Shown here piece after piece: positions 1,687 through 26,388 of a stretch of DNA of 34,495 nt. Origin of the DNA: a virus; UHGV virus genome UHGV-0366749. One strand, 5' to 3'. Below the pieces are notes generated by a model. The model was not told the origin of the DNA. It did no database searches and saw only the letters and a list, made by a program, of their open reading frames with translations. The first letter of the stretch is position 1, and every line of letters starts with the position of its first letter. Both the position numbers and the translations under genes were made by a program.

Positions 1687-2256
1687 CTATTTAACATACT
1701 TGACTGTTAAACTTATAATTTTACCAATTATTTCAATGTCTTCTATCTTGCATTCGAAGGCTCTGTTTCCACCCTCGACGAAGATTCTTCCACCGGGTAA
1801 ACGAGTAATGTCACGGATCGTTATTTCGCCATCAATACTTATTACCCATTTACCATCACGTATATCATCAAATTCTTTATCACAAATAAATTCAGAATTG
1901 TTATCTGTGATGACAAAAGGTTTTTTAAACGTAGAGGGTAGAAATCCCTTATCAAAAATATAAAAACCGTCTTTCTGCAATGCTCCATCAGACAATAAAT
2001 ATTTTTCTACTTCTATAGTATTTGTATTTGCTGATGCTTGCTTTGAACCATGCCCTGTTGTTAGCCAATTAAGCGAGGTGCCCGTTTCAAGGGCGCACTG
2101 GATTACCCAATCTGCTGGAAAAATATCACGCATATAGCGCGTTGCCATGGTGCTCTTAGAAACACCTAAATGATCACATAGAGCCTGACGGGTACCGAAC
2201 CCATATGCTTCAACTAAACGTTCTATGGCTTTCTTACCGCCGCTATTGAAATCCAC
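1687..2256 (-). CDS. cI: 186-type CI immunity repressor
   Basis: Recalled similarity to phage 186 CI (CALETG…WLTTG; LPGG…V.GG…FEC.I.DI). Start set to the GTG preceded by TGGAGGA rather than the upstream ATG at 2343, giving about 190 aa. Confidence 0.75.
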   Translation of the reverse strand: MDFNSGGKKAIERLVEAYGFGTRQALCDHLGVSKSTMATRYMRDIFPADWVIQCALETGTSLNWLTTGHGSKQASANTNTIEVEKYLLSDGALQKDGFYIFDKGFLPSTFKKPFVITDNNSEFICDKEFDDIRDGKWVISIDGEITIRDITRLPGGRIFVEGGNRAFECKIEDIEIIGKIISLTVKYVK

Positions 2257-2401
2257 AAGTCCTCCAAAGAAATCCAAAATTCGTTGACAGATTCCAAAAG
2301 CGATCTTAAAGTTGAACCAGAAGTGTTCTTTTGGAGCCTTCACTACTAATCACGACAAACAACGGCTCGCCACAAGCCATATCTAGAAGGAATGTTGCCT
2401 T

Positions 2402-3600: not shown

Positions 3601-3942
3601 ATGGCAATTAATGGCGCTGCAGCAACTGTTCCATTAAGCCCCGGTGAACGCCTGAATGGACTTAATCACATTGCAGAGTTAAGGGCGAAAGTTTTTGGCC
3701 TGAATATTGAGTCAGAGCTTGAGCGGTTTATTAAAGATATGCGTGATCCACGGGATATCAATAATGAACAAAATAAACGGGCACTGGCTGCCATATTCTT
3801 TATGGCAAAAATTCCAGCTGAACGTCATAGCATCAGCATTAATGAGCTGACCACTGACGAAAAGCGGGAGCTGATTAAAGCAATGAATCATTTTCGTGCA
3901 GTGGTGAGCTTATTTCCCAGACGGCTAACCATGCCGAATTAA
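3601..3942 (+). CDS. Hypothetical early protein (113 aa)
   Basis: ATG with an upstream G-rich RBS, same strand as the early operon. Confidence 0.5.
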   Translation: MAINGAAATVPLSPGERLNGLNHIAELRAKVFGLNIESELERFIKDMRDPRDINNEQNKRALAAIFFMAKIPAERHSISINELTTDEKRELIKAMNHFRAVVSLFPRRLTMPN

Positions 3943-4009
3943 CCAACTAATGAAATTAATGGCGTAAACCCGCCGGGCATCCCTTTATCTAAATTCAGGA
4001 GAATTGATT

Positions 4010-4243
4010 ATGCGTAATATTGAAACCCTCACGACTAAAACCGGACCGGATGACGCAGGGCTTAATATTTTACTGACAGAGGCTCGTCTGGAAGAACGCC
4101 GGGCAAGGGCTGAAGCAATGGCTGCTCGCCTTGATAGCCTGGCGTGTCATATCTCATCCCGCCAGCTAAACCACGTGGAAGCGGCAGAACTGCTGCGCGT
4201 GACTGCTGAAGCAATCCAGAACGAAGCGCAGGAGATCCACTAA
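4010..4243 (+). CDS. Hypothetical early protein (78 aa)
   Basis: ATG at 4010 preceded by CAGGAG with an 8-nt spacer; its stop overlaps the next start (TAATG). Confidence 0.5.
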   Translation: MRNIETLTTKTGPDDAGLNILLTEARLEERRARAEAMAARLDSLACHISSRQLNHVEAAELLRVTAEAIQNEAQEIH

Positions 4244-4470
4244 TGGCTGATGCAATGGATCTCGTACAGCAGCGCGTTGAAGAAGAACGCCAGCGCCATA
4301 TCCGTGCAGCCCGTGCCAAATCACCGGGCGTGTCACGCGTACTTTGCATTGAATGTGAAGCGCCAATTCCGCCAGCACGACGCCGCGCCATTCCGGGAGT
4401 GCAGCTTTGCATTACCTGTCAGGAAATCGCAGAACTGAAAGGCAAACATTACAACGGAGGTGCTGTATGA
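4243..4470 (+). CDS. TraR/DksA-family C4 zinc-finger protein
   Basis: CIECEAPIPPARRRAIPGVQLCITCQ, i.e. CxxC-N17-CxxC, typical of phage TraR/DksA-like proteins; RBS GCAGGAG. Confidence 0.7.
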   Translation: MADAMDLVQQRVEEERQRHIRAARAKSPGVSRVLCIECEAPIPPARRRAIPGVQLCITCQEIAELKGKHYNGGAV

Positions 4471-5324
4471 GCACCATCCTGAAATGGGCGGGAAATAAAA
4501 CCGCCATTATGCCAGAACTGAAAAAATACCTTCCTGCTGGCCCGCGACTGGTTGAACCTTTCGCGGGTTCCTGTGCTGTGATGATGGAAACGGATTATCC
4601 CAGCTATCTGGTTGCGGATATTAATCCTGATTTAATCAACCTCTATAAAAAGGTTGCCGCTGATTGTGAATCGTTTATATCTCGCGCCAGAGTTTTATTT
4701 GAGATCGCAAACAGGGAGGTGGCTTATTACAACATAAGGCAGGAGTTTAACTGCTCAACTGAAATTACTGATTTCATGAAAGCGGTATATTTCCTGTATC
4801 TTAATCGTCACGGTTACCGTGGTTTATGTCGCTATAACAAGAGCGGGCATTTCAACATCCCCTACGGTAATTATAAAAATCCGTATTTCCCTGAAAAAGA
4901 ACTTCGCACATTTGCAGAAAAAGCCCAGCGAGCAACGTTTATCTGCGCCAGCTTTGATGAAACGCTGGCGATGTTGAAGGCGGGAGATGTGGTGTATTGC
5001 GATCCGCCGTATGACGGTACGTTTTCCGGCTATCACACTGATGGTTTCACTGAAGATGACCAGTATCACCTGGCATCCGTTCTTGAACATCGGTCATCAG
5101 AAGGACATCCAGTCATTGTTTCTAACAGTGACACATCCCTGATCCGTTCGCTGTATCGCAATTTTACTCACCACTATATCAAGGTAAAACGCAGCATCGG
5201 TGTGGCAGCTGGCGAGGGTAAATCAGCAACAGAAATCATTGCTGTTTCCGGGCCGCGCTGCTGGATGGGATTTGATTATTCGCGTGGCGTGGATAGTTCT
5301 GCCGTGTACGGAGTACGTGCATGA
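4467..5324 (+). CDS. dam: DNA adenine (N6) methyltransferase, Dam family
   Basis: N-terminal ILKWAGNK…PFAGSCAV (AdoMet-binding) and the DPPY catalytic motif; start overlaps the upstream stop (ATGA) and the stop overlaps the gene A start. Confidence 0.85.
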
Positions 5325-7735
5325 GTCATGCCGATATGAACAACTGCTGCGGCTTTAACGAGGCTGCCGCAGCATTCTCATGGAACAGCCCGAAAAAGGC
5401 CATTAACCCTTATCTGGACCCGGCGGAAGTTGCGCCGGTTTCTACGCTTTCAAACCTGATCACTCTGTACGCTGCCGATAACGAGCAGGAACAGTTGCGC
5501 CGCGAGGCACTGAGTGATCAGGTCTGGGAGCGTTATTTCTTTAATGAATCACGTGATCCTGTCCAGCGCGAAATGGAGCAGGATAAGCTCATTAGCCAGG
5601 CAAAGCTGGCGCATGAGCAGCAGCGTTTTAATTCAGACATGGTCATTCTGGCGGACGTCAACGCCCAGCCTTCCCATATCAGCAAGCCGCTGATGCAACG
5701 TATTGAATACTTCAGCAGCCTGGGCAGGCCAAAGGCTTATTCCCGCTATTTACGTGAGACGATTAAGCCATGTCTGGAACGACTGGAGCATGTACGCGAC
5801 AGTCAGCTATCTGCATCTTTTCGCTTTATGGCAAGCCATGAAGGGCTGGACGGCCTGCTGATCCTGCCTGAAATGAGTCAGGATCAGGTGAAACGCCTGT
5901 CCACCCTGGTAGCTGCGCATATGAGTATGTGCCTTGATGCAGCTTGTGGTGATTTGTATGCCACCGATGACGTTAAGCCAGAAGAAATCCGCAAGACATG
6001 GGAAAAGGTGGCAGCGGAAACCCTGCGTCTGGATGTCATCCCACCTGCGTTTGAGCAACTCCGTCGGAAAAGAAACCGCCGTAAACCCGTGCCCTATGAA
6101 CTCATTCCGGGTTCGCTGGCGCGTATGTTGTGCGCCGACTGGTGGTACCGGAAATTATGGAAGATGCGTTGCGAATGGCGGGAAGAGCAGTTGCGCGCTG
6201 TTTGCCTGGTCAGCAAAAAAGCATCTCCTTATGTCAGCTATGAAGCCGTGATGCATAAACGTGAGCAGCGCCGTAAGTCGCTGGAGTTTTTCCGTTCTCA
6301 TGAACTGGTGAACGAAGACGGCGACACGCTGGACATGGAGGATGTGGTAAACGCCAGCAGCAGCAACCCTGCGCATCGCCGCAATGAGATGATGGCCTGT
6401 GTTAAAGGTCTGGAGCTTATCGCGGAAATGCGCGGTGACTGCGCCGTTTTCTACACTATCACCTGTCCGTCGCGTTTCCATTCCACGCTAAATAACGGCA
6501 GACCAAACCCGACCTGGACAAACGCGACGGTAAGACAAAGCAGCGATTATCTGGTCGGCATGTTTGCTGCATTTCGTAAGGCGATGCACAAAGCCGGGTT
6601 GCGCTGGTATGGCGTGCGGGTGGCTGAGCCGCATCATGATGGCACAGTTCACTGGCACCTGTTGTGTTTCATGCGCAAAAAAGACCGCCGTGCCATCACT
6701 GCATTACTGCGTAAGTTTGCCATCCGTGAAGACCGCGAGGAGCTGGGCAATAACACTGGGCCGCGCTTTAAGTCTGAGTTGATTAACCCGCGCAAAGGAA
6801 CGCCGACAAGCTACATCGCGAAATATATCAGTAAGAACATTGACGGTCGTGGTCTGGCTGGCGAGATCAGCAAGGAAACGGGTAAATCTCTGCGTGATAA
6901 CGCTGAATACGTGAATGCCTGGGCGTCTCTGCATCGTGTTCAGCAATTCCGCTTCTTTGGTATTCCGGGGCGTCAGGCTTACCGTGAACTTCGCTTGCTG
7001 GCTGGTCAGGCGGCAAGGCAACAGGGTGACAAAAAAGCAGGTGTGCCGGTACTGGATAACCCGCGTCTTGATGCCATTCTGGCTGCTGCTGATGCTGGTT
7101 GTTTTGCCACCTACATCATGAAGCAGGGCGGCGTACTGGTTCCCCGTAAATATCACCTCATCAGAACCGCTTATGAAATCAACGAAGAGCCGACCGCCTA
7201 TGGCGATCACGGCATTCGTATTTATGGCATCTGGTCACCCATTGCAGAGGGCAAGATCTGCACTCATGCAGTGAAGTGGAAAATGGTTCGTAAAGCCGTT
7301 GACGTTCAGGAGGCGGCAGCCGACCAGGGCGCTTGCGCCCCTTGGACTCGTGGCAATAACTGTCCCCTTGCTGAAAATTTGTACCAACAAGGGAAAGACA
7401 AATCAGCTGATGGGGATACCAGAACGGATATCACCCGCATGGATGACAAGGAATTGCACGATTACCTGCACAGTATGAACAAAAAAGAGCGCCGGGAACT
7501 GGCTGCAAGGTTACGCCTGGTGAAACCGAAACGGCGTAGAGACTACAAACAGCGAATTACAGATCATCAGCGACAGCAGCTCGTCTATGAACTGAAGTCC
7601 AGAGGATTTGATGGCAGCGAGAAAGAGGTCGATTTACTCCTTCGCGGTGGCAGTATTCCGTCAGGAGCAGGCCTGCGTATCTTCTATCGGAACCAGCGTT
7701 TGCAGGAAGATGATAAGTGGCGGGATCTGTATTAA
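5321..7735 (+). CDS. A: Rolling-circle replication initiation endonuclease (P2 gpA family)
   Basis: 804 aa with an HUH-type motif ([10 protein letters not shown]), the size and position of P2/186 gene A. Confidence 0.9.
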
Positions 7736-8526: not shown

Positions 8527-9726
8527 ATGTATCGTGTGTTGCTTTGGCAAAAAGGAGTTTTAGTGGACAACGGCTCAATCACCTTCTTTGATATTACTGC
8601 TTGTGGGTTTTATCGTTTAAAGAATAAACCCGAAGAGCTTGATTATAAATTCGGCGATCTTATGGGGGTTTTGGACGATTTAGAAGGGTGGCTCAAGGAT
8701 AAAAATTTTGAGCAGACTCTCCCATGGAATAAAGAAGAACAACCTCTGCGAACACGAGTTTACAGTCGAGGCCTTGTGAGGGACAGCCAGACTAAAGATG
8801 CAGTAATTGTTTTATACCGTGAAGTGGGGAACGGTAACGGAATACATGGTATTAAGGTCGGTTCTAAAGTAAGTGGTGATAGTAAAGGAACCATTAGGGC
8901 GGGAAGAGAACATGGTGAGGATAAAATAATTTGGGGTGAACCCTGCTATTACTGGATTATTCCTGAGTTGAATAAAATAGCATCAATCAGATTCCCCCAT
9001 TCTTTCGCTGATACTTATCTCTTCGCACAATACTTCATTCAGCATGTAAATAATAATAGTAAGTTAGGTAAAAGAACGAAATCTAAGCGTACATTTGAAT
9101 CAGCTAAGACCCCTGGTCGTTGTGTGGATGTCTACAATACTAAGTTTCAATATAAAGATGGCAAAAATGAGATAAACTGTATCTTCAAGTTTGTATTGGA
9201 AGAAACAAAACTTAAAGCCGCTGAGGAAAACTTTGAAAGGTTAAGGCATAAAATTACACACACATTGATAAAGGATACAACGGTAATAAACCAAAATGAC
9301 ACAAGGCAACCATTGTTGAAGCTAACAAGTGTAGCTTTAGCATCTCTGGTGGGTGAAGAAAAGCGTAATAAGCTTATTGGGGCACCTCCTGTTTTGGAGC
9401 AGCCTCGTAAAATTGAAGTTAAAATTGACGGTGCACCATCATCGGATGAGCTTCGAAATCTCTTCTCAATGAGAGGTGAAGAGTCTGAATGGGATGTGGG
9501 TTTTTTACTGGCTGATCGTGCTAATCCGGTTTGGCTCAGTAGCTATGTAGCCAGGACTAAACTTCCTCTTCAAGATTCGGATGGGTTTGAGCATTATTCA
9601 GCGCGTTTTTTACTGGATGAAATAAACAAAATTCGTGATGATTTGATTAGTGAAGTAAAATATGCTGAGGAAGCATCCATTAAAGAATCTGAAGCTGCAT
9701 CCACAAAAAAGATAGCGGAAGGTTGA
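8527..9726 (+). CDS. Uncharacterised 399-aa soluble protein, gene 1 of a coupled two-gene accessory cassette
   Basis: Long ORF in a sharply AT-rich island at the P2 tin/old position. An in-frame GTG at 8563 with AAGGAG 5 nt upstream is the more likely start. No Walker A, CD-NTase, reverse-transcriptase or other motif recognised. Confidence 0.7.
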   Translation: MYRVLLWQKGVLVDNGSITFFDITACGFYRLKNKPEELDYKFGDLMGVLDDLEGWLKDKNFEQTLPWNKEEQPLRTRVYSRGLVRDSQTKDAVIVLYREVGNGNGIHGIKVGSKVSGDSKGTIRAGREHGEDKIIWGEPCYYWIIPELNKIASIRFPHSFADTYLFAQYFIQHVNNNSKLGKRTKSKRTFESAKTPGRCVDVYNTKFQYKDGKNEINCIFKFVLEETKLKAAEENFERLRHKITHTLIKDTTVINQNDTRQPLLKLTSVALASLVGEEKRNKLIGAPPVLEQPRKIEVKIDGAPSSDELRNLFSMRGEESEWDVGFLLADRANPVWLSSYVARTKLPLQDSDGFEHYSARFLLDEINKIRDDLISEVKYAEEASIKESEAASTKKIAEG

Positions 9727-9727
9727 T

Positions 9728-10264
9728 ATGACAGAAACGGAAGGTTTGATAATAACAGTTGCAAAACAGCAGGCGATTAATTTTGTTGCTGTTGTTTTGT
9801 GCTGCGTTATAAGCTATTTTTCGTTCAAAAGTTTTTCCTATAATGATGCAAAAGATATTTTAGGTGCGCTTATAAATATTTCAGCATCTATATTCACTAT
9901 TGTCGGTTTATGGGTCGGTTTTTTATATCCGAATGCAATGAATAGTATTGTTAAGGATGATGTAAGTTATATAAAAAATGAGCATGACTCACCAAGAATA
10001 GAGAAATTAGTTTATACAATAATCACATCTGCTTGTGTTATGGCTGGGATTCTAATTTTCTTTTTGGTTAAGGCAGTGTTTTATGCATTACCTGTTTATC
10101 AAGCTAATAAAGACTTGTTTAAATACATTGGTATTTTCTTCATTTACTTTATTAGCTGGATGCAATTAAAATGCGTTATGAGCCTGATTTTGAGTAATTT
10201 ACATTTTGTTAATCACTTACATGGACGTTTAGCAAAAGCGAAATTAGAACACTATGATGAATAA
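9728..10264 (+). CDS. Small membrane protein (178 aa, about four predicted TM helices), gene 2 of the cassette
   Basis: Start overlaps the gene 1 stop (TGATATG); four hydrophobic stretches (e.g. AINFVAVVLCCVISYFSF, LVYTIITSACVMAGILIFFLV); AT-rich. Confidence 0.75.
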   Translation: MTETEGLIITVAKQQAINFVAVVLCCVISYFSFKSFSYNDAKDILGALINISASIFTIVGLWVGFLYPNAMNSIVKDDVSYIKNEHDSPRIEKLVYTIITSACVMAGILIFFLVKAVFYALPVYQANKDLFKYIGIFFIYFISWMQLKCVMSLILSNLHFVNHLHGRLAKAKLEHYDE

Positions 10265-10478
10265 AGTGTTCGTATTGGCAGGAGTTACTGTGGATGTTTA
10301 ACCTCAACAAGAGTAAGCCTCCTTTAACATGGGAATCACCGTTCTAACAAGCTTTGCATGTCTATGCTGCATGAATCCGCATGATCGTTTTAGGATCGTT
10401 TTTGCTGAGGCCCGCCAGAACTGGCGGGCTTTTGCTTATGTCATACACCTGCATGAAAACCACTACATAAAGCGGGCA

Positions 10479-10497
10479 GGCGTGGCGGGGATACGAG
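10479..10497. other. cos: Putative cos cohesive-end site
   Basis: GGCGTGGCGGGGATACGAG; the first 13 nt match the recalled 186 cohesive end GGCGTGGCGGGGAAAGCAT (P2: GGCGAGGCGGGGAAAGCAC); in an intergenic gap where the phage right and left arms should meet. Confidence 0.45.
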
Positions 10498-10542
10498 CGC
10501 GCGCTAACTCATAAATCCTAGATTATTAGTGGATTTATCTCA

Positions 10543-12366
10543 TTGAAATGTGCACTATTCCCAGCATTGAGTTGTACCAGATGTCTTTATGGAGGGACTG
10601 TGGCTTTTGTAACTGATATTCGGCTTGAAGATAATGCTATTGCTGCACCTGCGACAGCACAGGTTATGGCTCAGAGGCTAGGATCTGTATTACGTAAGAG
10701 ATATGAAGAATTCATCCATAAAAGAGAGTGTGCACCAGGCCAAGCAGACTATGATGTAAAAATGGCTAGCAGGGCTTTAGCTGCATTCACTATGTATCAG
10801 TTAGGATGTGTGGATGATAAGTATGCAGGGGAGTCTGTATGTGATAGTAGTGAAGATGGTGGTATAGATGGAATAGCAATCAACCATAACGAAAAAATCG
10901 TTGTTGTTGTTCAATCAAAATTTCACCAATCGGGAAACGGCACTTGGACAAGAGCCGATTTTATGTGTTTTAAGGATGCTTGTGAGAAGCTACAAAGTGA
11001 AAGATACGAATTATTTGATTCCATATTGCAAAATAAAAGCGGGGAAATAAGTGCGGCTTTAAGTAGTTTTGAATACAAGTTCATCTTTGCGATGGCGCAT
11101 ACAGGTAAAAAAGGTGCTGCAGAGGAAATATTAAATGATATGCGGGAATGGCAATATCAATTAAACGCTGCAGCTTTTACACCTGAGGATGAGCCTAAAG
11201 AGAACTGGGGATTTCAGGTTCATTTAATATCCTCTGAAGATATGATGCATTGGTTACAGAATGGCTCTCGAAATCAAATTGATCTTAACAGGGTTGAAAT
11301 TGAGCGTTTTGGATTTTTGAATGAACCATATCAAGCTTTTTACGGGGCTATTAGTGGTGATCAAGTTGCAGAATGGTGGGAAGAGCATGGTGCTCGATTA
11401 TTTACAAAAAACATAAGGAATATGCTTGGTAAAACAGAAGTGAATGAGGAAATAAAAAAGACAGCTATAGATAATCCTGATATGTTTTGGTTTTATAATA
11501 ATGGGATTACTGTACTGGTTAAGGAGGTTGTTCCTCATAGACGAAACGCAGCTCCTAATATAGAGAGAGGGATTTTTGATTTTCGTGATGTAAGTGTAAT
11601 TAATGGTGCACAAACAGTCAGTAGTATTGGCGCATGTAAAGATGCGCTTGGTGAAAACATATATAGACTCAAAGTGCCAGCTAGATTCATTGTTATAGAT
11701 GATGATACTGATAATTTAACTGCAAATGCGATTACAAAAGCTAACAATTTCCAAAATAGAGTATTGGGAAGGGATTTTGCGTCGCAGCAGGCAGATCAAC
11801 ATAGATTGGCAAGGGAGTTAGTGCTTGAAGGATATCAATATCAGTTACTAAGAACAGATGAAGATCATTCACAGACAAATACGAAAGTCATTGACTTGGA
11901 TGAGGCGCTCAATGCACTCGCATGTTTAAGTAAAAATAATACGGTTGTATCGACACTAAAATCAAATCGCGGTAGGTTTTTTGAAAATTTTGAAGGCTCT
12001 CTATATAAAACTATTTTCAATCCAAGATTAAGTGGTTTAAAACTTATCAATACTGTTCTACATTTTAGAGTTATAGATAAGTTGATCGGTAAAACATTAC
12101 TATCAGTAGATAAAACTACCCATAGTCGCAAGCATTTAATTATTACGCATGGTAATAGATACTATGCGTCTGTGCTATTGAGCAACGTTTCTGGGATACA
12201 TAATAGCTCAGAAATTCTTGTTCCAGATGAAAAAAATCTTTCAGAAGAATTAAGTGCATTAATTCAACGTGCTGAAGAGTACATTGAAGATAATTACCCG
12301 AATGCCTATCCGGCAAGATTTTTTGCAAATCCAACGAAAATACAAGAGTTATACGATAATGTTTAA
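10543..12366 (+). CDS. AIPR-like abortive-infection protein with an N-terminal Mrr-like PD-(D/E)xK nuclease motif
   Basis: SEDGGIDGIAINHNEKIVVVVQSKF fits the Mrr catalytic core (DGGIDG…QxK); an NGITVL…INGAQT segment lies mid-protein; AT-rich. Start is uncertain (TTG 10543, GTG 10600 after GGAGGG, or ATG 10666). Confidence 0.7.
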   Translation: MKCALFPALSCTRCLYGGTVAFVTDIRLEDNAIAAPATAQVMAQRLGSVLRKRYEEFIHKRECAPGQADYDVKMASRALAAFTMYQLGCVDDKYAGESVCDSSEDGGIDGIAINHNEKIVVVVQSKFHQSGNGTWTRADFMCFKDACEKLQSERYELFDSILQNKSGEISAALSSFEYKFIFAMAHTGKKGAAEEILNDMREWQYQLNAAAFTPEDEPKENWGFQVHLISSEDMMHWLQNGSRNQIDLNRVEIERFGFLNEPYQAFYGAISGDQVAEWWEEHGARLFTKNIRNMLGKTEVNEEIKKTAIDNPDMFWFYNNGITVLVKEVVPHRRNAAPNIERGIFDFRDVSVINGAQTVSSIGACKDALGENIYRLKVPARFIVIDDDTDNLTANAITKANNFQNRVLGRDFASQQADQHRLARELVLEGYQYQLLRTDEDHSQTNTKVIDLDEALNALACLSKNNTVVSTLKSNRGRFFENFEGSLYKTIFNPRLSGLKLINTVLHFRVIDKLIGKTLLSVDKTTHSRKHLIITHGNRYYASVLLSNVSGIHNSSEILVPDEKNLSEELSALIQRAEEYIEDNYPNAYPARFFANPTKIQELYDNV

Positions 12367-12370
12367 ACTA

Positions 12371-12394
12371 AAGGGAGGTTGCCTCCCTTTTTTA
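12371..12394. terminator. Bidirectional rho-independent terminator between the AIPR-like gene and Q
   Basis: aagggagg-ttgc-cctccctt hairpin with an A-tract on one side and a T-tract on the other. Confidence 0.6.
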
Positions 12395-12395
12395 A

Positions 12396-13424
12396 TTAGA
12401 AATGGTATTCTTGGAATTCAATAACACCTTCTTTTATGAAATTGTTTATTTCTTGTAATCTTTTTTGCAATGGCAATAATTCATTACGTACAAATACTTT
12501 ACTCGCCTTCTCTACATCTCCAAAGCCCCCAACATTATTAGGCATTATCCCCATCATTTGCGGTGGCACACGATGCGCCGCCATCATGTCATCCCGGCTC
12601 ACGTTCTTGATGTTTAGAAACTCATCCTTCGCCGCCACTTCTGACAACGGGATAATCTGAAGTCCGTCCTTTTTCCCGTTAGGCGAGTACATAAACAGGT
12701 TGCGGAAGTTACCTGGTCCTTTGGCGCTTTTCATCGCATTGCGGAGGTTGTTCACATCCTCCTGGTTTTGCGCGGCATCGGTCATGTACATGATGAAGCC
12801 TGCATGACTGCCGTTAATGTAATACTTTCGGCGGAACAGCGTGGCGGACTCGTTGAGCAGGGCTGACGGAATGGCAGAAAGGTAACCTGGCAGGCCGTAG
12901 ATCTCTTGGTTGATGTCCGGTTCCATCAGATGAAAGATGCTTCCTTTCGTGAACTGATATGGCTGCGTGGTCATACCGTATTGCACAAACCAGTAGGTAT
13001 CCAGGTCTAACCCGCGTCGGGTGTATTTTGCCAGGGCAGGTTCAAGGGCGATAACTTCACCGAAGCGGTTAGTGCGTTTCTCCAGGTAGGCGTTACCAAA
13101 AACCAGATAGTCCTGCACAAAACGTGAAAAAGCCTGCTGGCTGAGCAGCGGGTGAGGGATATAGGTGCTGGACAGAATGTTGCACTTTACTGCAATCGGG
13201 GAGCTGTGATGTACGGCAGCGCGGAAGGTTCGCGCCAGCCCGTCGAAACTCACTGGTGGCTCATACCAGCGGTCCATCTGTACGCATTCCACATAGTCCA
13301 GTAATTCGCGGCGGTCCAGAACAGGAACGGGATCACCGAAGCTGAATGCTTCGGCTGAAGTTTGGCTTTTATGCTTGAGCTGATTCGTCGCCGCAGCGCG
13401 GTTTTTCTTACTCTTTCCCATCAA
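12396..13424 (-). CDS. Q: Portal protein (P2 gpQ family)
   Basis: 342 aa, upstream partner of the terminase on the minus strand; start overlaps the P stop. Confidence 0.9.
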   Translation of the reverse strand: MMGKSKKNRAAATNQLKHKSQTSAEAFSFGDPVPVLDRRELLDYVECVQMDRWYEPPVSFDGLARTFRAAVHHSSPIAVKCNILSSTYIPHPLLSQQAFSRFVQDYLVFGNAYLEKRTNRFGEVIALEPALAKYTRRGLDLDTYWFVQYGMTTQPYQFTKGSIFHLMEPDINQEIYGLPGYLSAIPSALLNESATLFRRKYYINGSHAGFIMYMTDAAQNQEDVNNLRNAMKSAKGPGNFRNLFMYSPNGKKDGLQIIPLSEVAAKDEFLNIKNVSRDDMMAAHRVPPQMMGIMPNNVGGFGDVEKASKVFVRNELLPLQKRLQEINNFIKEGVIEFQEYHF

Positions 13425-15187
13425 AAAATCTCCACAATATTGCTGGTATTGGCGGATTCGCCCTGCAGCGGTTCGTTAAACAGTGCGTGCATCGTTGCCC
13501 AGGCCAGATCGGCGTGGCTGGCTTCTTCGCTGCGGCTGGCTTCATAGGTCGGGCGGTTGCCGCTGGCGGTTGTGGCGCGACGGATTGCCATGAATGACTG
13601 CGCAATGTCGGTGTGTCCGGCGTCAAACTCCAGACGGCGGTGGCTGATAATGTCGTAGGCCTTGAGTACCAGGGCGTTTTTAACGTTGGGGTTGTAGACA
13701 AACTCCCGGACGGCAGGAAAGAACGCTTTTACGTTCTCATAAACCCCGTGACCGACACCTGTCGAGTCGATACCGATATAGGTCACGTTGTACTGTTCAG
13801 TCAGTTTTTTGATGGCGTCCGCCTGGGCACGGAAGTCCATCCCGCGCCACTGGTGACGCACAAGAATGCGGAACTTACCGCCCGGCACGGCTGGCGGAGC
13901 CACCACCACGCATCCGGCACTGTCGCCGTTCTGCGTACCTTTTGCCGGGTCATAACCGATCCACACCTCGCGCCAGCCAAACGGGCGCAGGGCCAGTGCA
14001 TGAAAGTCGGTCCAGACTTCCCAACTGTCCACCATGCACGCCTGCAGTTCGCTGAGCGGGAACACGGACGCGAGATCGTCCACGAACTCGCACATCAGCA
14101 GGTTCTGGTATTCGTCCGGGCTGTACTCCATGCGCAACTGGTCGAGATCGAACAGGTTACAGCCGCCGCGCACCGCATCTTCCACGGTGACTATCTGGCG
14201 GTATTGCCCGTCTGCGCACAGCAGGCCGGGGGCCAGATTGTTGTGGGACAGGTCTATGTCCACCTTATCGGCTTTGTTGCGCCCACGGTTGAACAGCGCA
14301 CCGGACCAGAACGGATAAGCACTATGAGTCAGGCTGGATGGCGTGGAAAAATAGGTTTGTCGCCATTTCTTGTGAATAGCCATGCCGGAAGCCACTTTGC
14401 GCAGCTCCTGGAATTTCGGTATCCAGAAATATTCATCCAGATACAGGTTGCCGTGGTAACTCTGGGCCGTGCGGGCATTGGTGCCGAGGAAGTAAAGTGT
14501 GGCTCCGTTAGGAAGAACCATCGGATCGCCTTTCAGCTCCACCTCGACTTCTTTGGCGAAGTCTATGATGTACTGCTTAAAGACGTGAGCCTGTGCCTTA
14601 CTGGCGGAAAGGAAAATCTGGTTACGTCCGGTAAGCAGGGCGTCAATCAGGGCTTCACGGGCAAAGTAAAAGGTCGCGCCGATCTGGCGAGACTTCAGCA
14701 GGTTGCGGATGCGATTGGTTTTTCCGGCTTCCCACCAGTGGCGCTGGTAGTTGAACATGGAGGAATGGAAGATTTCTTCCAGCTTCTCAATCTGTTCATC
14801 GGTGAAAACATTCTTTTCCGGCTGACGGCGCGGCCCTTTGTTGCGGTTGGCGACGTTAGGGTTTAAGTCGGCTTCGTTGCCGCCATTGTTAAACTTGCCG
14901 ATCCGCGCGTGGCGCTCCGACTGGCGCGCCAGCAGGTCAATTTCTTTGAAATCTTTCCCTTCTTTGTGCTCCTTCATAATGAGCTGGCAGTAGCGGGCGG
15001 CGGTGGTGAGCTGCATCTGATCCAGCGGCCCATAGTCACCCCACTTGTCGCGTTTTTTCCAGCTGTGAACGGTTGCAACTTTCTCGCCCAGCATTTCAGC
15101 AATGCGGGCTACGCGGTATCCCTGAAAGTACAGCAGCATGGCCTGCCGACGGGGATCGAGATCTGCGGGTGTCAGTGTGGTGTTCAT
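13421..15187 (-). CDS. P: Terminase large subunit (P2 gpP family)
   Basis: 588 aa, P2 gpP-like, divergent from O. Confidence 0.9.
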   Translation of the reverse strand: MNTTLTPADLDPRRQAMLLYFQGYRVARIAEMLGEKVATVHSWKKRDKWGDYGPLDQMQLTTAARYCQLIMKEHKEGKDFKEIDLLARQSERHARIGKFNNGGNEADLNPNVANRNKGPRRQPEKNVFTDEQIEKLEEIFHSSMFNYQRHWWEAGKTNRIRNLLKSRQIGATFYFAREALIDALLTGRNQIFLSASKAQAHVFKQYIIDFAKEVEVELKGDPMVLPNGATLYFLGTNARTAQSYHGNLYLDEYFWIPKFQELRKVASGMAIHKKWRQTYFSTPSSLTHSAYPFWSGALFNRGRNKADKVDIDLSHNNLAPGLLCADGQYRQIVTVEDAVRGGCNLFDLDQLRMEYSPDEYQNLLMCEFVDDLASVFPLSELQACMVDSWEVWTDFHALALRPFGWREVWIGYDPAKGTQNGDSAGCVVVAPPAVPGGKFRILVRHQWRGMDFRAQADAIKKLTEQYNVTYIGIDSTGVGHGVYENVKAFFPAVREFVYNPNVKNALVLKAYDIISHRRLEFDAGHTDIAQSFMAIRRATTASGNRPTYEASRSEEASHADLAWATMHALFNEPLQGESANTSNIVEIF

Positions 15188-20322: not shown

Positions 20323-20767
20323 ACTGCAGAAGGTGGACGACTGGCTGAGTGCTTTGCTGGCGAATCTGGAACCAGCCGCAAGAAGCCGAATGATGCGCCA
20401 GCTGGCGCAGGAACTGCGCCGGACACAGCAGCAGAATATCAGGATGCAGCGCAATCCAGATGGCAGCAGTTATGAGCCGCGCAGGGTAACAGCACGCAGC
20501 AAGAAGGGGCGCATCAAACGTCAGATGTTTGCAAAGCTGCGCACCACAAAATACCTGAGAACTGCCGCCAGCGCGGATTCTGCCAGCGTACAGTTTGAAG
20601 GTAAGGTACAGCGTATTGCCCGTGTTCATCACTACGGTCTGCGCGATCGCGTCAGTCCAAAGGGGGGAGTCATTAAGTATCCATCCCGAAAATTGCTGGG
20701 TTTAAATGAACATACTGAAAATGAAGTAAGAGATTTACTTTTAAAGTATTTATTGATGAAAAATTAG
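20315..20767 (+). CDS. S: Tail completion / virion morphogenesis protein (P2 gpS family)
   Basis: Position and size; the 3' end runs into AT-rich DNA. Confidence 0.7.
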   Translation: MAELQKVDDWLSALLANLEPAARSRMMRQLAQELRRTQQQNIRMQRNPDGSSYEPRRVTARSKKGRIKRQMFAKLRTTKYLRTAASADSASVQFEGKVQRIARVHHYGLRDRVSPKGGVIKYPSRKLLGLNEHTENEVRDLLLKYLLMKN

Positions 20768-20772
20768 AATGT

Positions 20773-21303
20773 TTACGCTCTTAATAAACTTAAATAACTT
20801 TTTATGCTTTGGCAAAAAGGGAAAAGGTCTATTTTAATTTTCCAGTTTTTTTTGTTTTGAACCCCAGAAGCAATAATAGAACCGTCCCAATATTTTATTC
20901 CATTTTTGCCGGTCTTTTTTGTTAACTCAAAACTTAATGCGTGAATAATTTTATTGCAGCATTCGCGTATAGAATCTTTAACATGACCATCTATAACAAA
21001 AAGTATATTTTCATGTTCTTCAAATGCTTCTTTCTCAGGTGAGTAATCTGGGTTCCACTCATGTTCACTAGTGTCTTGGAGAATTCGTAGTTTTGTACAA
21101 AGGCTAATAAGATTGTTGCTAATGGTATATTCCAACCATCCGTTGTACGATAACTCCTCCATTTCAAATTCAGTTACTATAGAACCATCATATACTTTCT
21201 GTGTGGAATATATACGCTGTAAATAAAATTCAGATGAACAGCATAATTGCTCAATTATTCTTGCGTGTTCTTCTATAGCGTAATAATCAATTGGATGGCT
21301 CAT
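20773..21303 (-). CDS. Uncharacterised 176-aa protein encoded by an AT-rich insertion between S and V
   Basis: Reverse-strand ORF in a low-GC block between two conserved late genes. Start set at the second ATG (MSHPIDYY…) after an AAAGG-type RBS; the first ATG is at 21342. No recognised motif and no TM segment. Confidence 0.6.
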   Translation of the reverse strand: MSHPIDYYAIEEHARIIEQLCCSSEFYLQRIYSTQKVYDGSIVTEFEMEELSYNGWLEYTISNNLISLCTKLRILQDTSEHEWNPDYSPEKEAFEEHENILFVIDGHVKDSIRECCNKIIHALSFELTKKTGKNGIKYWDGSIIASGVQNKKNWKIKIDLFPFCQSIKSYLSLLRA

Positions 21304-21334
21304 TCTTTTACCTTTCTTTGATTGGAATTGTATT

Positions 21335-21352
21335 TGTGTCATTTACCACACA
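21335..21352. promoter_or_regulatory. Possible late-promoter TGT-N12-ACA element upstream of V
   Basis: TGTGTCATTTACCACACA, 47-64 bp upstream of the V start; weaker match than the O and FI elements. Confidence 0.25.
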
Positions 21353-21398
21353 AGGACGTATTGATGCCATAGATTCAAGGTCCGTGCAACCTAACCCT

Positions 21399-21977
21399 AT
21401 GAACGCACAACTAACCGAAATCATGCGCCTTATCACCAACCTGATCCGCACTGGTGTAGTCACCGAAGTGGACCGGGAAAACTGGCTTTGCCGGGTGAAA
21501 ACGGGCGAGCTTGAAACCAACTGGATCAGCTGGCTGACGCTGCGTGCCGGGAATGCCCGCACATGGTGGCGACCATCGGAAGGTGAGCAGGTGGTGCTGC
21601 TGAGTCTGGGCGGCAATCTGGAAACTGCCTTTGCGCTGCCCGCTGTCTATTCGAATCAGTTCGCACCACCGTCGACGTCGGCAGACGCCTGCGTGACAGA
21701 ACATCCTGACGGCGGCTGGTTTGAATACGAACCCACTACCGGGCGCTGGTATGTCAGGGGCATCAAATCAATGGTCATTGAGGCCGCTGACAACATCACC
21801 ATGAAAACCAGTGAGTTTGTACTGGAGGCTGACCGCACGCGCATTAACAGCGAAGTGGTGATCAATGGTGGCGTTACCCAGGGCGGCGGAGCGATGAGTT
21901 CTAACGGGATCGTGGTTGATGCGCATCAGCATACTGACGTCCTGAAAGGCGGCGACACAACCGGAGGCCCGGTATGA
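21399..21977 (+). CDS. V: Baseplate spike/assembly protein (P2 gpV family)
   Basis: N-terminus MNAQLTEIMRLITNLIRTGVVTEVD resembles P2 gpV; start taken at this ATG rather than the upstream ATG at 21291. Confidence 0.85.
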   Translation: MNAQLTEIMRLITNLIRTGVVTEVDRENWLCRVKTGELETNWISWLTLRAGNARTWWRPSEGEQVVLLSLGGNLETAFALPAVYSNQFAPPSTSADACVTEHPDGGWFEYEPTTGRWYVRGIKSMVIEAADNITMKTSEFVLEADRTRINSEVVINGGVTQGGGAMSSNGIVVDAHQHTDVLKGGDTTGGPV

Positions 21978-23826: not shown

Positions 23827-25214
23827 GCACAAAATTTTATACCCTGCTGACGGATATTGGCGCGGCGAAACTTGCCAGCGCCGCCGCGCTCGGTGTGCCG
23901 CTAAAAATTACCCATATGGCGGTGGGCGATGGCGGCGGAACATTGCCAACGCCGGACGCCAAGCAGACAGCATTGGTAAATGAGAAACGCCGGGCTGCGC
24001 TGAATATGCTCTATATCGACCCGCAGAACAGCAGCCAGATTATTGCTGAACAGGTGATCCCTGAAAACGAGGGCGGTTGGTGGATACGTGAAGTGGGCCT
24101 GTTTGATGAGTCCGGGGCATTGATTGCCGTGGGCAACTGCCCGGAAAGCTATAAGCCGCAACTGGCTGAAGGCAGCGGGCGTACCCAGACCGTGCGCATG
24201 GTGCTGATTACCAGCAGCACGGACAATATCACCCTGAAAATCGACCCTGCCGTAGTGCTGGCAACCCGCAAGTATGTGGATGACAAGGTACTGGAGCTGA
24301 AGGTGTACGTGGATGATCAGATGGCAAAACATCTTGCCGCACCGGACCCGCATTCACAGTATGCACCCAAAGAAAGTCCGACGTTTACCGGGACACCAAA
24401 AGCGCCAACTCCAGCGGCAGGGAATAACACCACGCAGGTTGCGACCACCGCGTTTGTTCAGGCGGCACTGACGGCTCTTATTAATGGTGCGCCAGCCACG
24501 CTGGACACGCTGAAAGAAATAGCCGCAGCCATTAACAATGATCCGAATTTCAGTACCACCATTAACAATGCGCTGGCACTGAAAGCGCCGTTGTCGAGTC
24601 CGGCACTCACCGGAACGCCAACAGCCCCCACTGCTGCACAGTCGGTCAACAATACACAGATTGCCACCACGGCTTTTGTGAAATCGGCGATTGCAGCAAT
24701 GGTAGGTTCTGCACCTGCGGCACTGGATACACTGAACGAACTGGCGTCGGCGTTGGGGAATGATCCGAACTTTGCCACGACAATGCTTAATGCGCTGGCA
24801 GGTAAACAACCGCTGGACAATACGCTGACTAATTTGAGTGGAAAGGATGTCGCTGGTCTTCTCGCATTCCTTGGTTTGGGAGAAGCCAGATATGTCATTC
24901 AGCGAGGAGCTAATGCCAATGGTGCGTGGATACGCTGGTCAGATGGTGCAATAGAAGTATTTGGAACTGGTGGTTCCAATGATAATGGGCTGGCTAAAGT
25001 CGTTTATCCAATTGCACTACCTAAGCTTTCACGTTTTATCAGCATAGCGGAAAGAATAAGAACAGATTACGAGGCCACACCTAATAACGTTCACGTTTCA
25101 ATGATCGTGGATGACCAGGTCAGTAATACAGGTTTTTATGTCCGCTGCCAGATGTACGACGGAAGACCATCAACAAGTGCTTTTTCCTGGAGAGTTTATT
25201 GTGCGCCTGTTTAA
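23823..25214 (+). CDS. H: Tail fibre protein (P2 gpH family); C-terminal part lies inside an invertible segment
   Basis: 463 aa with tail-fibre-type internal repeats (…NNTTQVATTAFV… twice); the reading frame crosses the left crossover site at 24871..24890. Confidence 0.85.
   Translation: MSTKFYTLLTDIGAAKLASAAALGVPLKITHMAVGDGGGTLPTPDAKQTALVNEKRRAALNMLYIDPQNSSQIIAEQVIPENEGGWWIREVGLFDESGALIAVGNCPESYKPQLAEGSGRTQTVRMVLITSSTDNITLKIDPAVVLATRKYVDDKVLELKVYVDDQMAKHLAAPDPHSQYAPKESPTFTGTPKAPTPAAGNNTTQVATTAFVQAALTALINGAPATLDTLKEIAAAINNDPNFSTTINNALALKAPLSSPALTGTPTAPTAAQSVNNTQIATTAFVKSAIAAMVGSAPAALDTLNELASALGNDPNFATTMLNALAGKQPLDNTLTNLSGKDVAGLLAFLGLGEARYVIQRGANANGAWIRWSDGAIEVFGTGGSNDNGLAKVVYPIALPKLSRFISIAERIRTDYEATPNNVHVSMIVDDQVSNTGFYVRCQMYDGRPSTSAFSWRVYCAPV
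24871..24890. repeat. Left crossover site of the invertible segment (hix/gix-like)
   Basis: ttggtttgggagaagccaga is the exact reverse complement of 26308..26327; the left copy lies inside the tail-fibre ORF (encoding GLGEAR). Confidence 0.6.
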
Positions 25215-25398: not shown

Positions 25399-25633
25399 CC
25401 CCCGGCGTGGTGCTGGTATCTGATTCCATCACCGCGTCGATATTACCAACATCATATTCAGTCATTTCCGGTTCCGGTGGCGCTATAAACTCTCCGTCAG
25501 AATAGAACCAACCGACGCCTGCATCTATATGATCAATATTTATAATTTCGCAGTTAGAGAATAAATCACCATCTCCATCCCAGATAATAATATTTTTCAC
25601 CACGCCATGTTCAATCAGAGCAAAATTACTCAT
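25367..25633 (-). CDS. Alternative tail-fibre assembly chaperone (Tfa-like), silent in this orientation
   Basis: 88 aa ending …GVIWPVPPEMV, matching the conserved WPxPP C-terminus of Tfa proteins as recalled; GAGGAG RBS. Confidence 0.55.
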   Translation of the reverse strand: MSNFALIEHGVVKNIIIWDGDGDLFSNCEIINIDHIDAGVGWFYSDGEFIAPPEPEMTEYDVGNIDAVMESDTSTTPGVIWPVPPEMV

Positions 25634-26327
25634 CAGGCATACTCCTCAACAATAACTATTCCCGGGGCACCGTCACCTCCCGATTGAGCCTCACTTCCGG
25701 CAGGTGCGCAGGCTCCGCCTCCGCCAGCACCAAAGCCCTCAGCTTTACCACCACCACGTCCGCTGAATGATGAAGAACTTGCACCACCTATACCGCCTGA
25801 ACCTAGTGGTGTATCCCCCCCGGTACCACCTGCAACAGCTTTAACAGAGATAACCATTGCACCTGGTGTTTTTGCACTACAGCGAAATGCTCTTAGTACA
25901 GTACCGGACGATGTCGGACTGGCACCCCATGAAATACCCTGAATATATGATGTGTTTGCAGATGCTCCCCCCGCGCCACCGCCTGTACCACCCGGTGCAG
26001 TTATCAGGGAACCGAAATAAGTTGTGCCACCTTCACTACCTGAATTTCTTCCGGCTCCCCCCCCTTTACCTGCAGCACCGATAATAACGTTGACTTCGAA
26101 ATCATTATCAACCTCGAAAAATGCTTCAATAAATGCACCGCTCAATCCAGCTCCGGCTGTTGCCTGCTGATTTTCTGTTGTTTCTGGAACCCCACCGCCG
26201 CCGCCACCGCCACCAGAGGCAATGACCCTTATCTTTTTTGTCCCTGGTGTTGGGATATATTTTCCAGAGCTTTTAAAAATATTCGTGTTTAACAAACGAC
26301 CAGAGAATCTGGCTTCTCCCAAACCAA
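25633..26327 (-). CDS. Alternative Gly-rich tail-fibre C-terminal exon (promoterless), fused to H after inversion
   Basis: Reverse-strand frame continuous from the right crossover site (encoding GLGEAR in the same frame as H) through a Gly-rich region to the stop at 25633. Confidence 0.55.
26308..26327. repeat. Right crossover site of the invertible segment
   Basis: tctggcttctcccaaaccaa, reverse complement of 24871..24890. Confidence 0.6.
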
Positions 26328-26388
26328 CGTTTATGAAAATGCAGAGATAACGGCTAACTGGCATCATCTCCGGTTTTTATTCAGGGGG

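Follow-up and report, generated by a model that had tools for sequence, protein, structure and literature searches.

Why does a P2-like prophage carry an AT-rich gene between its cohesive-end site (cos) and the portal gene Q, an interval in which phage P2 itself has no gene? The question is raised by the UHGV virus genome UHGV-0366749, a stretch of 34,495 nt (the window), which gene calls and profile matches over its whole length identify as a complete P2/186-like prophage. A first-pass annotation had described the open reading frame (ORF) at 10543–12366 as an AIPR-like protein with an Mrr-type nuclease motif, inserted between cos and the portal gene. We find a gene of the AIPR/AbiU family within the known A-Q defence hotspot of P2, in the slot to the right of cos. 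Very probably it is a stand-alone single-gene cargo ('moron') of this anti-phage family, built from a nuclease module and an AIPR module, in which the AIPR module would gate the cutting.

The ORF is open and intact, as annotated, and its longest form, from TTG 10543, encodes 607 amino acids (aa); this start, however, is probably not real. The most likely start is GTG 10600, because a GGAGG ribosome-binding site lies upstream, because the resulting product begins MAFV... like all 20 of the 20 full-length homologues aligned, and because this 1767-bp gene is what the NCBI Prokaryotic Genome Annotation Pipeline predicts in other genomes. RefSeq WP_021542068.1, "AIPR family protein", matches the 588-aa product with 100% identity. 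Residue numbers below refer to the 588-aa protein, and the coordinates of the PADLOC and MzaE matches to the 607-aa ORF. The gene and its parts are as follows.

10591–10595, plus strand: GGAGG ribosome-binding site, separated by 4 nt from GTG 10600, read from the sequence
10600–12366, plus strand: AbiU/AIPR-family gene, 588 aa, with its stop codon at 12364–12366
10600–11262, plus strand: predicted N-terminal PD-(D/E)xK nuclease domain, about aa 1–221
10843–10920, plus strand: predicted catalytic core D82, D86-G-G-I-D90...Q105-S-K107, from conservation, the model and a sub-threshold Mrr_cat match
11401–12288, plus strand: Pfam AIPR domain, aa 268–563, with a core that looks ParB/sulfiredoxin-like, then a helical C-terminal region
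11497–11505 and 11599–11616, plus strand: invariant AIPR motifs N300-N-G302 and I334-N-G-A-Q-T339, from conservation

As the annotation had noted, the gene is AT-rich: its GC content is 36.6% (26% at third codon positions, GC3) against 52–57% in Q, P and A, with a GC3 of 58% in Q and 70% in P. A 15-nt imperfect inverted repeat within the gene (10606–10620 and 11837–11851) is treated as chance.

The protein belongs to the AIPR/AbiU family. Pfam AIPR (PF10592) is matched with 121.5 bits against a gathering cut-off of 25 (E 7.3e-35) over profile positions 1–305 of 308, and it is also matched by all 80 of the 80 homologues scanned; since the match is far above the cut-off, the AIPR motifs are not a chance resemblance. 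The motifs that had been picked out by eye, DGGIDG (86–91) with QSK (105–107) and NNGITVL (300–306) with INGAQT (334–339), are present and are conserved in an alignment of 105 homologues with identity down to 24%, from which all conservation figures given here are taken. The protein carries the conserved AIPR core motifs NIR, NNG, (I/V)NGAQT, NxQN and RDF. The best PADLOC model is AbiU (PDLC02357, E 7.4e-25), which is matched near full length (aa 96–582 against profile positions 45–512 of 537), and PHROG 1841 ("Abi alpha-like abortive infection mechanism", category moron) is matched end to end (E 7.1e-173). In an exhaustive HMMER scan the family comprises 4026 clusters (50% identity) at E ≤ 1e-3 and 425 at E ≤ 1e-30; the best matches are mostly full-length proteins of 550–600 aa with the same two-part layout. 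Close homologues (52–87% identity) occur in Enterobacterales, Aeromonas, Vibrio, Pseudomonas and cyanobacteria. Among 50,697 phage records, no deposited phage genome contains the AIPR gene at a level detectable by megablast, and only the cos-proximal ~110 bp were matched. Searches of PDB sequences with the single protein and with the 105-sequence profile gave no meaningful match.

The N-terminal domain is predicted, from conservation and modelling, to be a PD-(D/E)xK nuclease with a D...QxK core, which bears out the proposal that DGGIDG...QSK is such a core. D82, D86, G88 and D90 are invariant in the 105 homologues, and conservation is at least 90% for R58, Q105 and K107. The AlphaFold2 model computed from the 105-sequence alignment has a mean predicted local distance difference test (pLDDT) score of 91.2 and a predicted template modelling (pTM) score of 0.81. 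In this model D90 directly precedes the strand 91–95 and Q105-S-K107 lies in the next strand (100–107), which is the classical PD-(D/E)xK arrangement and places the modelled domain within that core fold. The fold search returned nuclease matches to FokI (9.5), AspBHI (8.9), MspJI (8.2), AF1548 (7.7) and N.BspD6I (7.2), followed by LlaBIII (6.4), Hna (6.3), Avs4 (6.0), HamA (5.7) and Upx (5.4). These matches vanish when residues 222–588 alone are modelled and searched, and the nuclease fold therefore maps to the N-terminus. As judged from the model, the fold groups the domain with the cleavage domains of FokI, MspJI, AspBHI and AF1548, to which, as to Mrr-like proteins (AF1548, LlaBIII and the N-terminus of Avs4), the sequence identity is 8–13%; the partner domain here is AIPR and not a recognised DNA-recognition domain. 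In a 2026 review, AbiUi is superposed on FokI and a FokI-like nuclease domain is predicted, and in a 2026 phylogeny AbiU-1 falls within the PD-(D/E)XK superfamily, beside Upx.

The label 'Mrr-type', by contrast, did not hold at the level of sequence profiles. Mrr_cat (PF04471) scores 13.7 bits (E 0.068) against a gathering cut-off of 21, although its position (aa 80–111) coincides exactly with the predicted core, and among 80 family members Mrr_cat matches 5 (best E 1.3e-3), Mrr_cat_2 matches 2 and HamA matches 2. Mrr is thus best described as a resemblance and not as a demonstrated membership. The nuclease is predicted to be active, because the acidic and lysine residues of its PD-(D/E)xK core are invariant or nearly so.

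The AIPR domain differs in the character of its conserved residues. Invariant in the 105 sequences are N271, R273, N282, N300, N301, G302, N335, G336, Q338, N383, Q385, N386, F393, Y414 and Y469, a set that, to judge from the alignment, is not a typical acidic metal-binding site. The fold search with this domain returned PadC (5.7–5.8), the N-terminal domain of Pnob8-type ParB (5.1–5.2), BrxU (DUF262; 5.2), KorB (5.1), Sulfiredoxin (4.4–5.0) and SspE (DUF262; 4.4), intermixed with non-specific helical matches; the top Foldseek match is a ParB N-terminal domain and is not significant (E 0.15). The modelled core looks, tentatively, ParB/sulfiredoxin-like. The DUF262 profile matches none of 80 family members. 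INGAQT (334–339) forms a strand-then-helix element that we take to be placed like the DGQQR motif of DUF262. The AIPR fold result is consistent with, and no proof of, the statement of Makarova et al.

Could catalysis reside instead in the ParB-like AIPR domain, acting as a nuclease or NTPase toxin, with the PD-(D/E)xK domain only recognising DNA or being inactive? The AIPR/COG1479 core is termed 'ParB superfamily nuclease domain' in the literature, and a second AIPR subtype in the same slot has only the AIPR domain in common with the window protein (25% identity) and no N-terminal nuclease that Pfam recognises. The invariant AIPR residues, however, are chiefly asparagine, glutamine and glycine, plus a single arginine, which is atypical for a metal-dependent nuclease, whereas the acidic and lysine residues of the PD-(D/E)xK core have been kept throughout, or nearly throughout, the family. 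We regard catalysis by the AIPR domain as unlikely, though of the alternatives to the two-module cargo it survives best.

With the predicted nuclease as the cutting module, a two-step action can be proposed. In the lysogen, the AIPR domain would serve as a sensing or regulatory module that binds DNA and/or nucleotide, by analogy with DUF262 in GmrSD, BrxU and SspE. It would then license the PD-(D/E)xK nuclease to cut superinfecting phage DNA early in infection, with either restriction-like survival or abortive death as a possible outcome for the cell. Early DNA cutting would agree with what is reported for lactococcal AbiU, where AbiU1 by itself gives a modest, 10- to 100-fold resistance and phage transcription is delayed.

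Lactococcus lactis AbiU (AbiU1/AbiUi; Dai et al., 2001) is of the same family by PADLOC AbiU and Pfam AIPR, a likeness that rests on these profiles and not on direct sequence comparison, and the phenotype is known for the lactococcal protein alone. Both are single proteins of ~540–590 aa, as judged from the 537-position profile and from the alignment to FokI in the review, which covers 146 of 568 residues. The lactococcal protein is plasmid-borne in a Gram-positive host and stands beside the HEPN protein AbiU2, which dampens it; the gene in the window is flanked by PDC-M18A/B, DinI and the portal gene and has no AbiU2-like neighbour. In GmrSD, BrxU and SspE (a DUF262 NTPase joined to a nuclease; type IV restriction and phosphorothioate-sensing effectors) the nuclease is C-terminal and of the DUF1524/HNH type, whereas the window protein has an N-terminal PD-(D/E)xK domain. 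A closer counterpart by position is an AIPR protein of a P4 satellite (WP_032211572, plasmid pFR77; Rousset et al., 2022), which shares 33% identity over ~400 aa and the same motifs (D...DNGID...QSK and NNG/NGAQT) and is also a single-gene cargo directly beside cos; it belongs to a distant subfamily and is carried by a satellite and not by a helper phage.

The location of the gene was established relative to the backbone of the prophage, in which terminase P is followed by the tail genes and on to D.

239–1447: integrase
5321–7735: replication gene A
10479–10497, no strand: cos-like 19-nt cohesive-end site GGCGTGGCGGGGATACGAG, from sequence reading and alignment, with the backbone conserved to ~10504
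10505–12503, no strand: AT-rich (36% GC) right-of-cos cargo segment holding the AIPR gene, the hairpin and the replaced 3' end of Q, from composition and alignments
12370–12390, no strand: stem-loop with a 9-bp stem, from a terminator scan, folding on both strands (-12.9 and -13.4 kcal/mol)
12396–12503, minus strand: last ~36 codons of Q, from sliding-window identity and GC and from alignment
12396–13424, minus strand: portal gene Q
13421–15187, minus strand: terminase P

The cos-like site differs from P2 cos at 5 of 19 positions; a search of the window for P2 cos with up to 3 mismatches therefore returned nothing, and the site was found by reading and alignment. In an alignment with three other P2-like prophages, conservation extends up to ...GCGCGCGC (~10504) and is lost directly afterwards. 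P2 has cosL at 1–19, the terminator tQ at 160–181 and Q at 187–1221, with no gene between cos and Q, as the first-pass annotation had said; its cargo genes old and tin lie on the opposite side of cos. The bidirectional hairpin shared with Q was also correctly recognised. It lies between the stop codons of the convergent AIPR gene and Q (12396–12398), at the position that tQ has in P2, and its sequence differs from that of tQ.

The segment does lie between cos and the portal gene, but the idea of a simple insertion has to be modified, since the AT-rich segment extends ~110 bp into Q. This 3' stretch of Q has 23–28% GC and 33–63% identity to Q of strain JS316, against mostly 67–93% for the rest of the gene; it differs markedly from the Q genes of other P2-like phages and still codes for a related C-terminus. 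The pattern suggests that the stretch was inherited together with the cargo and that the boundary of the exchange lies inside an essential structural gene. Direct repeats flanking the cargo segment were sought and none was found, which leaves transposition or site-specific insertion with target duplication unsupported. Given the AT-rich end of Q, the different hairpin and the lack of direct repeats, the cassette probably came from a relative of lower GC, through recombination anchored in cos and near the 3' end of Q.

The variable cargo begins after cos and a short (T/C)GCGCGC (10498–10505) in P2-like prophages and in P4-satellite constructs alike, and the right-hand slot of P2 and the P4 hotspot may be positionally equivalent.

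The slot itself is a habitual site of cargo. The gpA-gpQ interval by cos is a described defence hotspot, with 1,650 gene arrangements in 18,150 loci, and WP_021542068 is listed at least 12 times in Table S5A of that survey (Rousset et al., 2022; PMC9122126). The AIPR gene lies between A and Q, next to cos, where the content varies from prophage to prophage. The ~110-bp cos region is found at 80–99% identity in 1272 of 5426 complete Escherichia coli genomes, 12 of which carry the AIPR gene with the adjoining portal gene. Nine other P2-like prophages were compared, an evenly spaced sample of eight cos matches and strain JS316, and the cos-Q slot is occupied in eight of these nine E. coli prophages and empty in one. 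The cargos are a SEFIR/TIR protein; a PIN_12 protein; a P-loop NTPase; an AAA ATPase with an S8 peptidase; an LPO_1073-family protein accompanied by a small hypothetical protein; one hypothetical gene; three hypothetical genes; and a second, very different AIPR protein. The empty slot of P2 is thus the exception and not the rule.

The second AIPR protein, in strain Survcare253 (3664–5403 of its locus; WP_059241720.1, 579 aa), has only the AIPR domain in common with the window protein (25% identity over ~190 aa), and no Pfam domain is recognised in its N-terminal region.

Two observations weigh against a defence cargo. The P4 relative was cloned by Rousset et al. (2022) and is not among their seven protective systems, and a scan for promoters gave no sigma-70-like site in the interval from cos to the AIPR start (10505–10599), where manual reading yielded poor candidates only. 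Together with the immediate proximity to cos, these observations could speak for a prophage function (packaging, maintenance or addiction) or for a silent passenger, the relative concerned being the sole E. coli one tested. Both readings are hard to reconcile with the distribution of the gene, which is missing from ~99% of P2-like prophages (12 of 1272 cos-bearing genomes have it), whose slot is filled by unrelated cargo elsewhere, and whose orthologues are also seen in lambdoid prophages and at places in the chromosome that have nothing to do with cos. They are equally hard to square with the identity of all copies with annotation read (WP_021542068.1 in 8 of 8, from the 12 genomes) and with a family that retains its catalytic residues. 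We therefore hold a role outside defence to be quite improbable.

A strong terminator stands directly upstream of cos, and it bears on how the AIPR gene would be transcribed in the lysogen. It ends a two-gene cassette to the left of cos.

8527–9726, plus strand: PDC-M18A-like gene (PADLOC, E 5.9e-31)
9728–10264, plus strand: PDC-M18B-like gene (PADLOC, E 2.8e-18)
10407–10433: strong terminator (-23.6 kcal/mol) that ends the left cassette just before cos

The PDC-M18A-like protein is 27% identical to the 'RexA + 4TM' system cloned by Rousset et al. from a P4 satellite; the second protein of the cassette is small and matches PDC-M18B. The first-pass annotation had suggested that this cassette and the AIPR gene may form a defence island straddling cos, and the RexAB-like cassette (8527–10264) and the AIPR gene might then be one functional system spread across the site. 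They are adjacent, similarly oriented, low in GC and both within the hotspot. The terminator and cos stand between them, however, and their partners change. At least five other left cassettes accompany an identical AIPR protein, namely DarT/DarG, a ComF-family protein with a hypothetical one, DUF2971, an AAA ATPase with an HNH endonuclease, and a KAP NTPase, which makes at least six distinct left-of-cos cassettes with this window included. Conversely, strain D9 has the PDC-M18 cassette, with a 99%-identical PDC-M18A gene, and a PIN-domain protein instead of AIPR in the right slot. The left and right cassettes assort independently, because each occurs with different partners across cos, and functional coupling is thereby largely refuted; we consider it very improbable. 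The 'island straddling cos' is true as geography, by co-location in the P2 hotspot, and not as a functional unit.

Orthologues away from cos lack such a neighbour as well. Homologues of 58–87% identity lie between the nin region and the replication genes of lambdoid prophages (Klebsiella and Cronobacter), in an integrase-bearing island (Pectobacterium) and among housekeeping genes (Pseudomonas and an enterobacterium), and no neighbour gene of AIPR is shared across the P2-like prophages, lambdoid prophages, island and chromosomal sites examined. As the homologues have no shared neighbour, the comparison supports a self-sufficient single-gene system, and the description of the locus as a self-contained moron, an AT-rich lone cargo gene with no conserved partner, was apt. 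The P2 genes old and tin, non-essential lysogenic-conversion genes of the same A-Q hotspot, are comparable cargo, on the other side of cos and with unrelated proteins. The weakest alternative, an MzaE-like part of a multi-gene MZA-type system, shares the AIPR core and yields partial matches there (PADLOC E 1.5e-13 and NCBIfam E 5.5e-16, ~aa 267–415), but it is rejected as improbable in the extreme, with 58.2 bits against a curated equivalog cut-off of 1050, no MzaA-D-like genes nearby and AbiU as the better and nearly full-length PADLOC model.

Three further features of the prophage were observed. Perfect 21-nt inverted repeats (TTGGTTTGGGAGAAGCCAGAT) at 24871–24891 and 26307–26327 flank a ~1.4-kb segment that adjoins a serine recombinase/invertase gene (Resolvase E 2.3e-53, with HTH_7) and contains an oppositely oriented glycine-rich ORF, probably a tail-fibre end; together they resemble an invertible host-range switch of the Gin/Cin type. 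The tail genes include a second AT-rich island (38% GC) at 20500–21500, with a 189-aa ORF whose sole match is PHROG 18838 (unknown function, E 4e-135) and which has no Pfam or PADLOC match; it may be another cargo gene. The immunity repressor matches Phage_CI_repr and Phage_CI_C, a combination that we presume to be that of phage 186 and not that of the P2 C repressor, and the immunity region may be closer to 186 than to P2.

1687–2343, minus strand: immunity repressor
20773–21342, minus strand: 189-aa ORF of the second AT-rich island
25633–26367, minus strand: ORF at the inverted-repeat segment
26389–26961, plus strand: ORF at the inverted-repeat segment

As a discovery the gene is minor. It is annotated in RefSeq, Pfam, PADLOC and PHROGs recognise its family, and databases and publications, including the hotspot survey, already cover the predicted nuclease domain and the hotspot location; because locus, family and accession are already catalogued, the finding, though correct, is an ordinary one. 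What value remains lies in having a convenient member, from E. coli, of a large and mechanistically uncharacterised defence family, for which the confident model points to residues to mutate in the nuclease (D82, D86, D90, Q105, K107) and in the AIPR core (R273, N335, Q338). The locus also illustrates two independently assorting slots of the P2 hotspot, one on each side of cos, the right one reaching into the portal gene.

A broader pair of proposals, which we offer jointly and tentatively as possible and not as probable, goes further. AbiU/AIPR would be the PD-(D/E)xK counterpart of GmrSD and BrxU, in which a ParB/sulfiredoxin-like nucleotide switch reads phage DNA (its modification or free ends) and gates FokI-like cleavage; and, separately, the cos-Q interval would be a distinct second cargo slot. 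Because this slot starts at the same cos-proximal junction as the P4 hotspot, helper and satellite could swap cassettes by recombination anchored at cos. If true, the GmrSD/BrxU-like reading would supply the mechanism that this widespread family has been missing since 2001.

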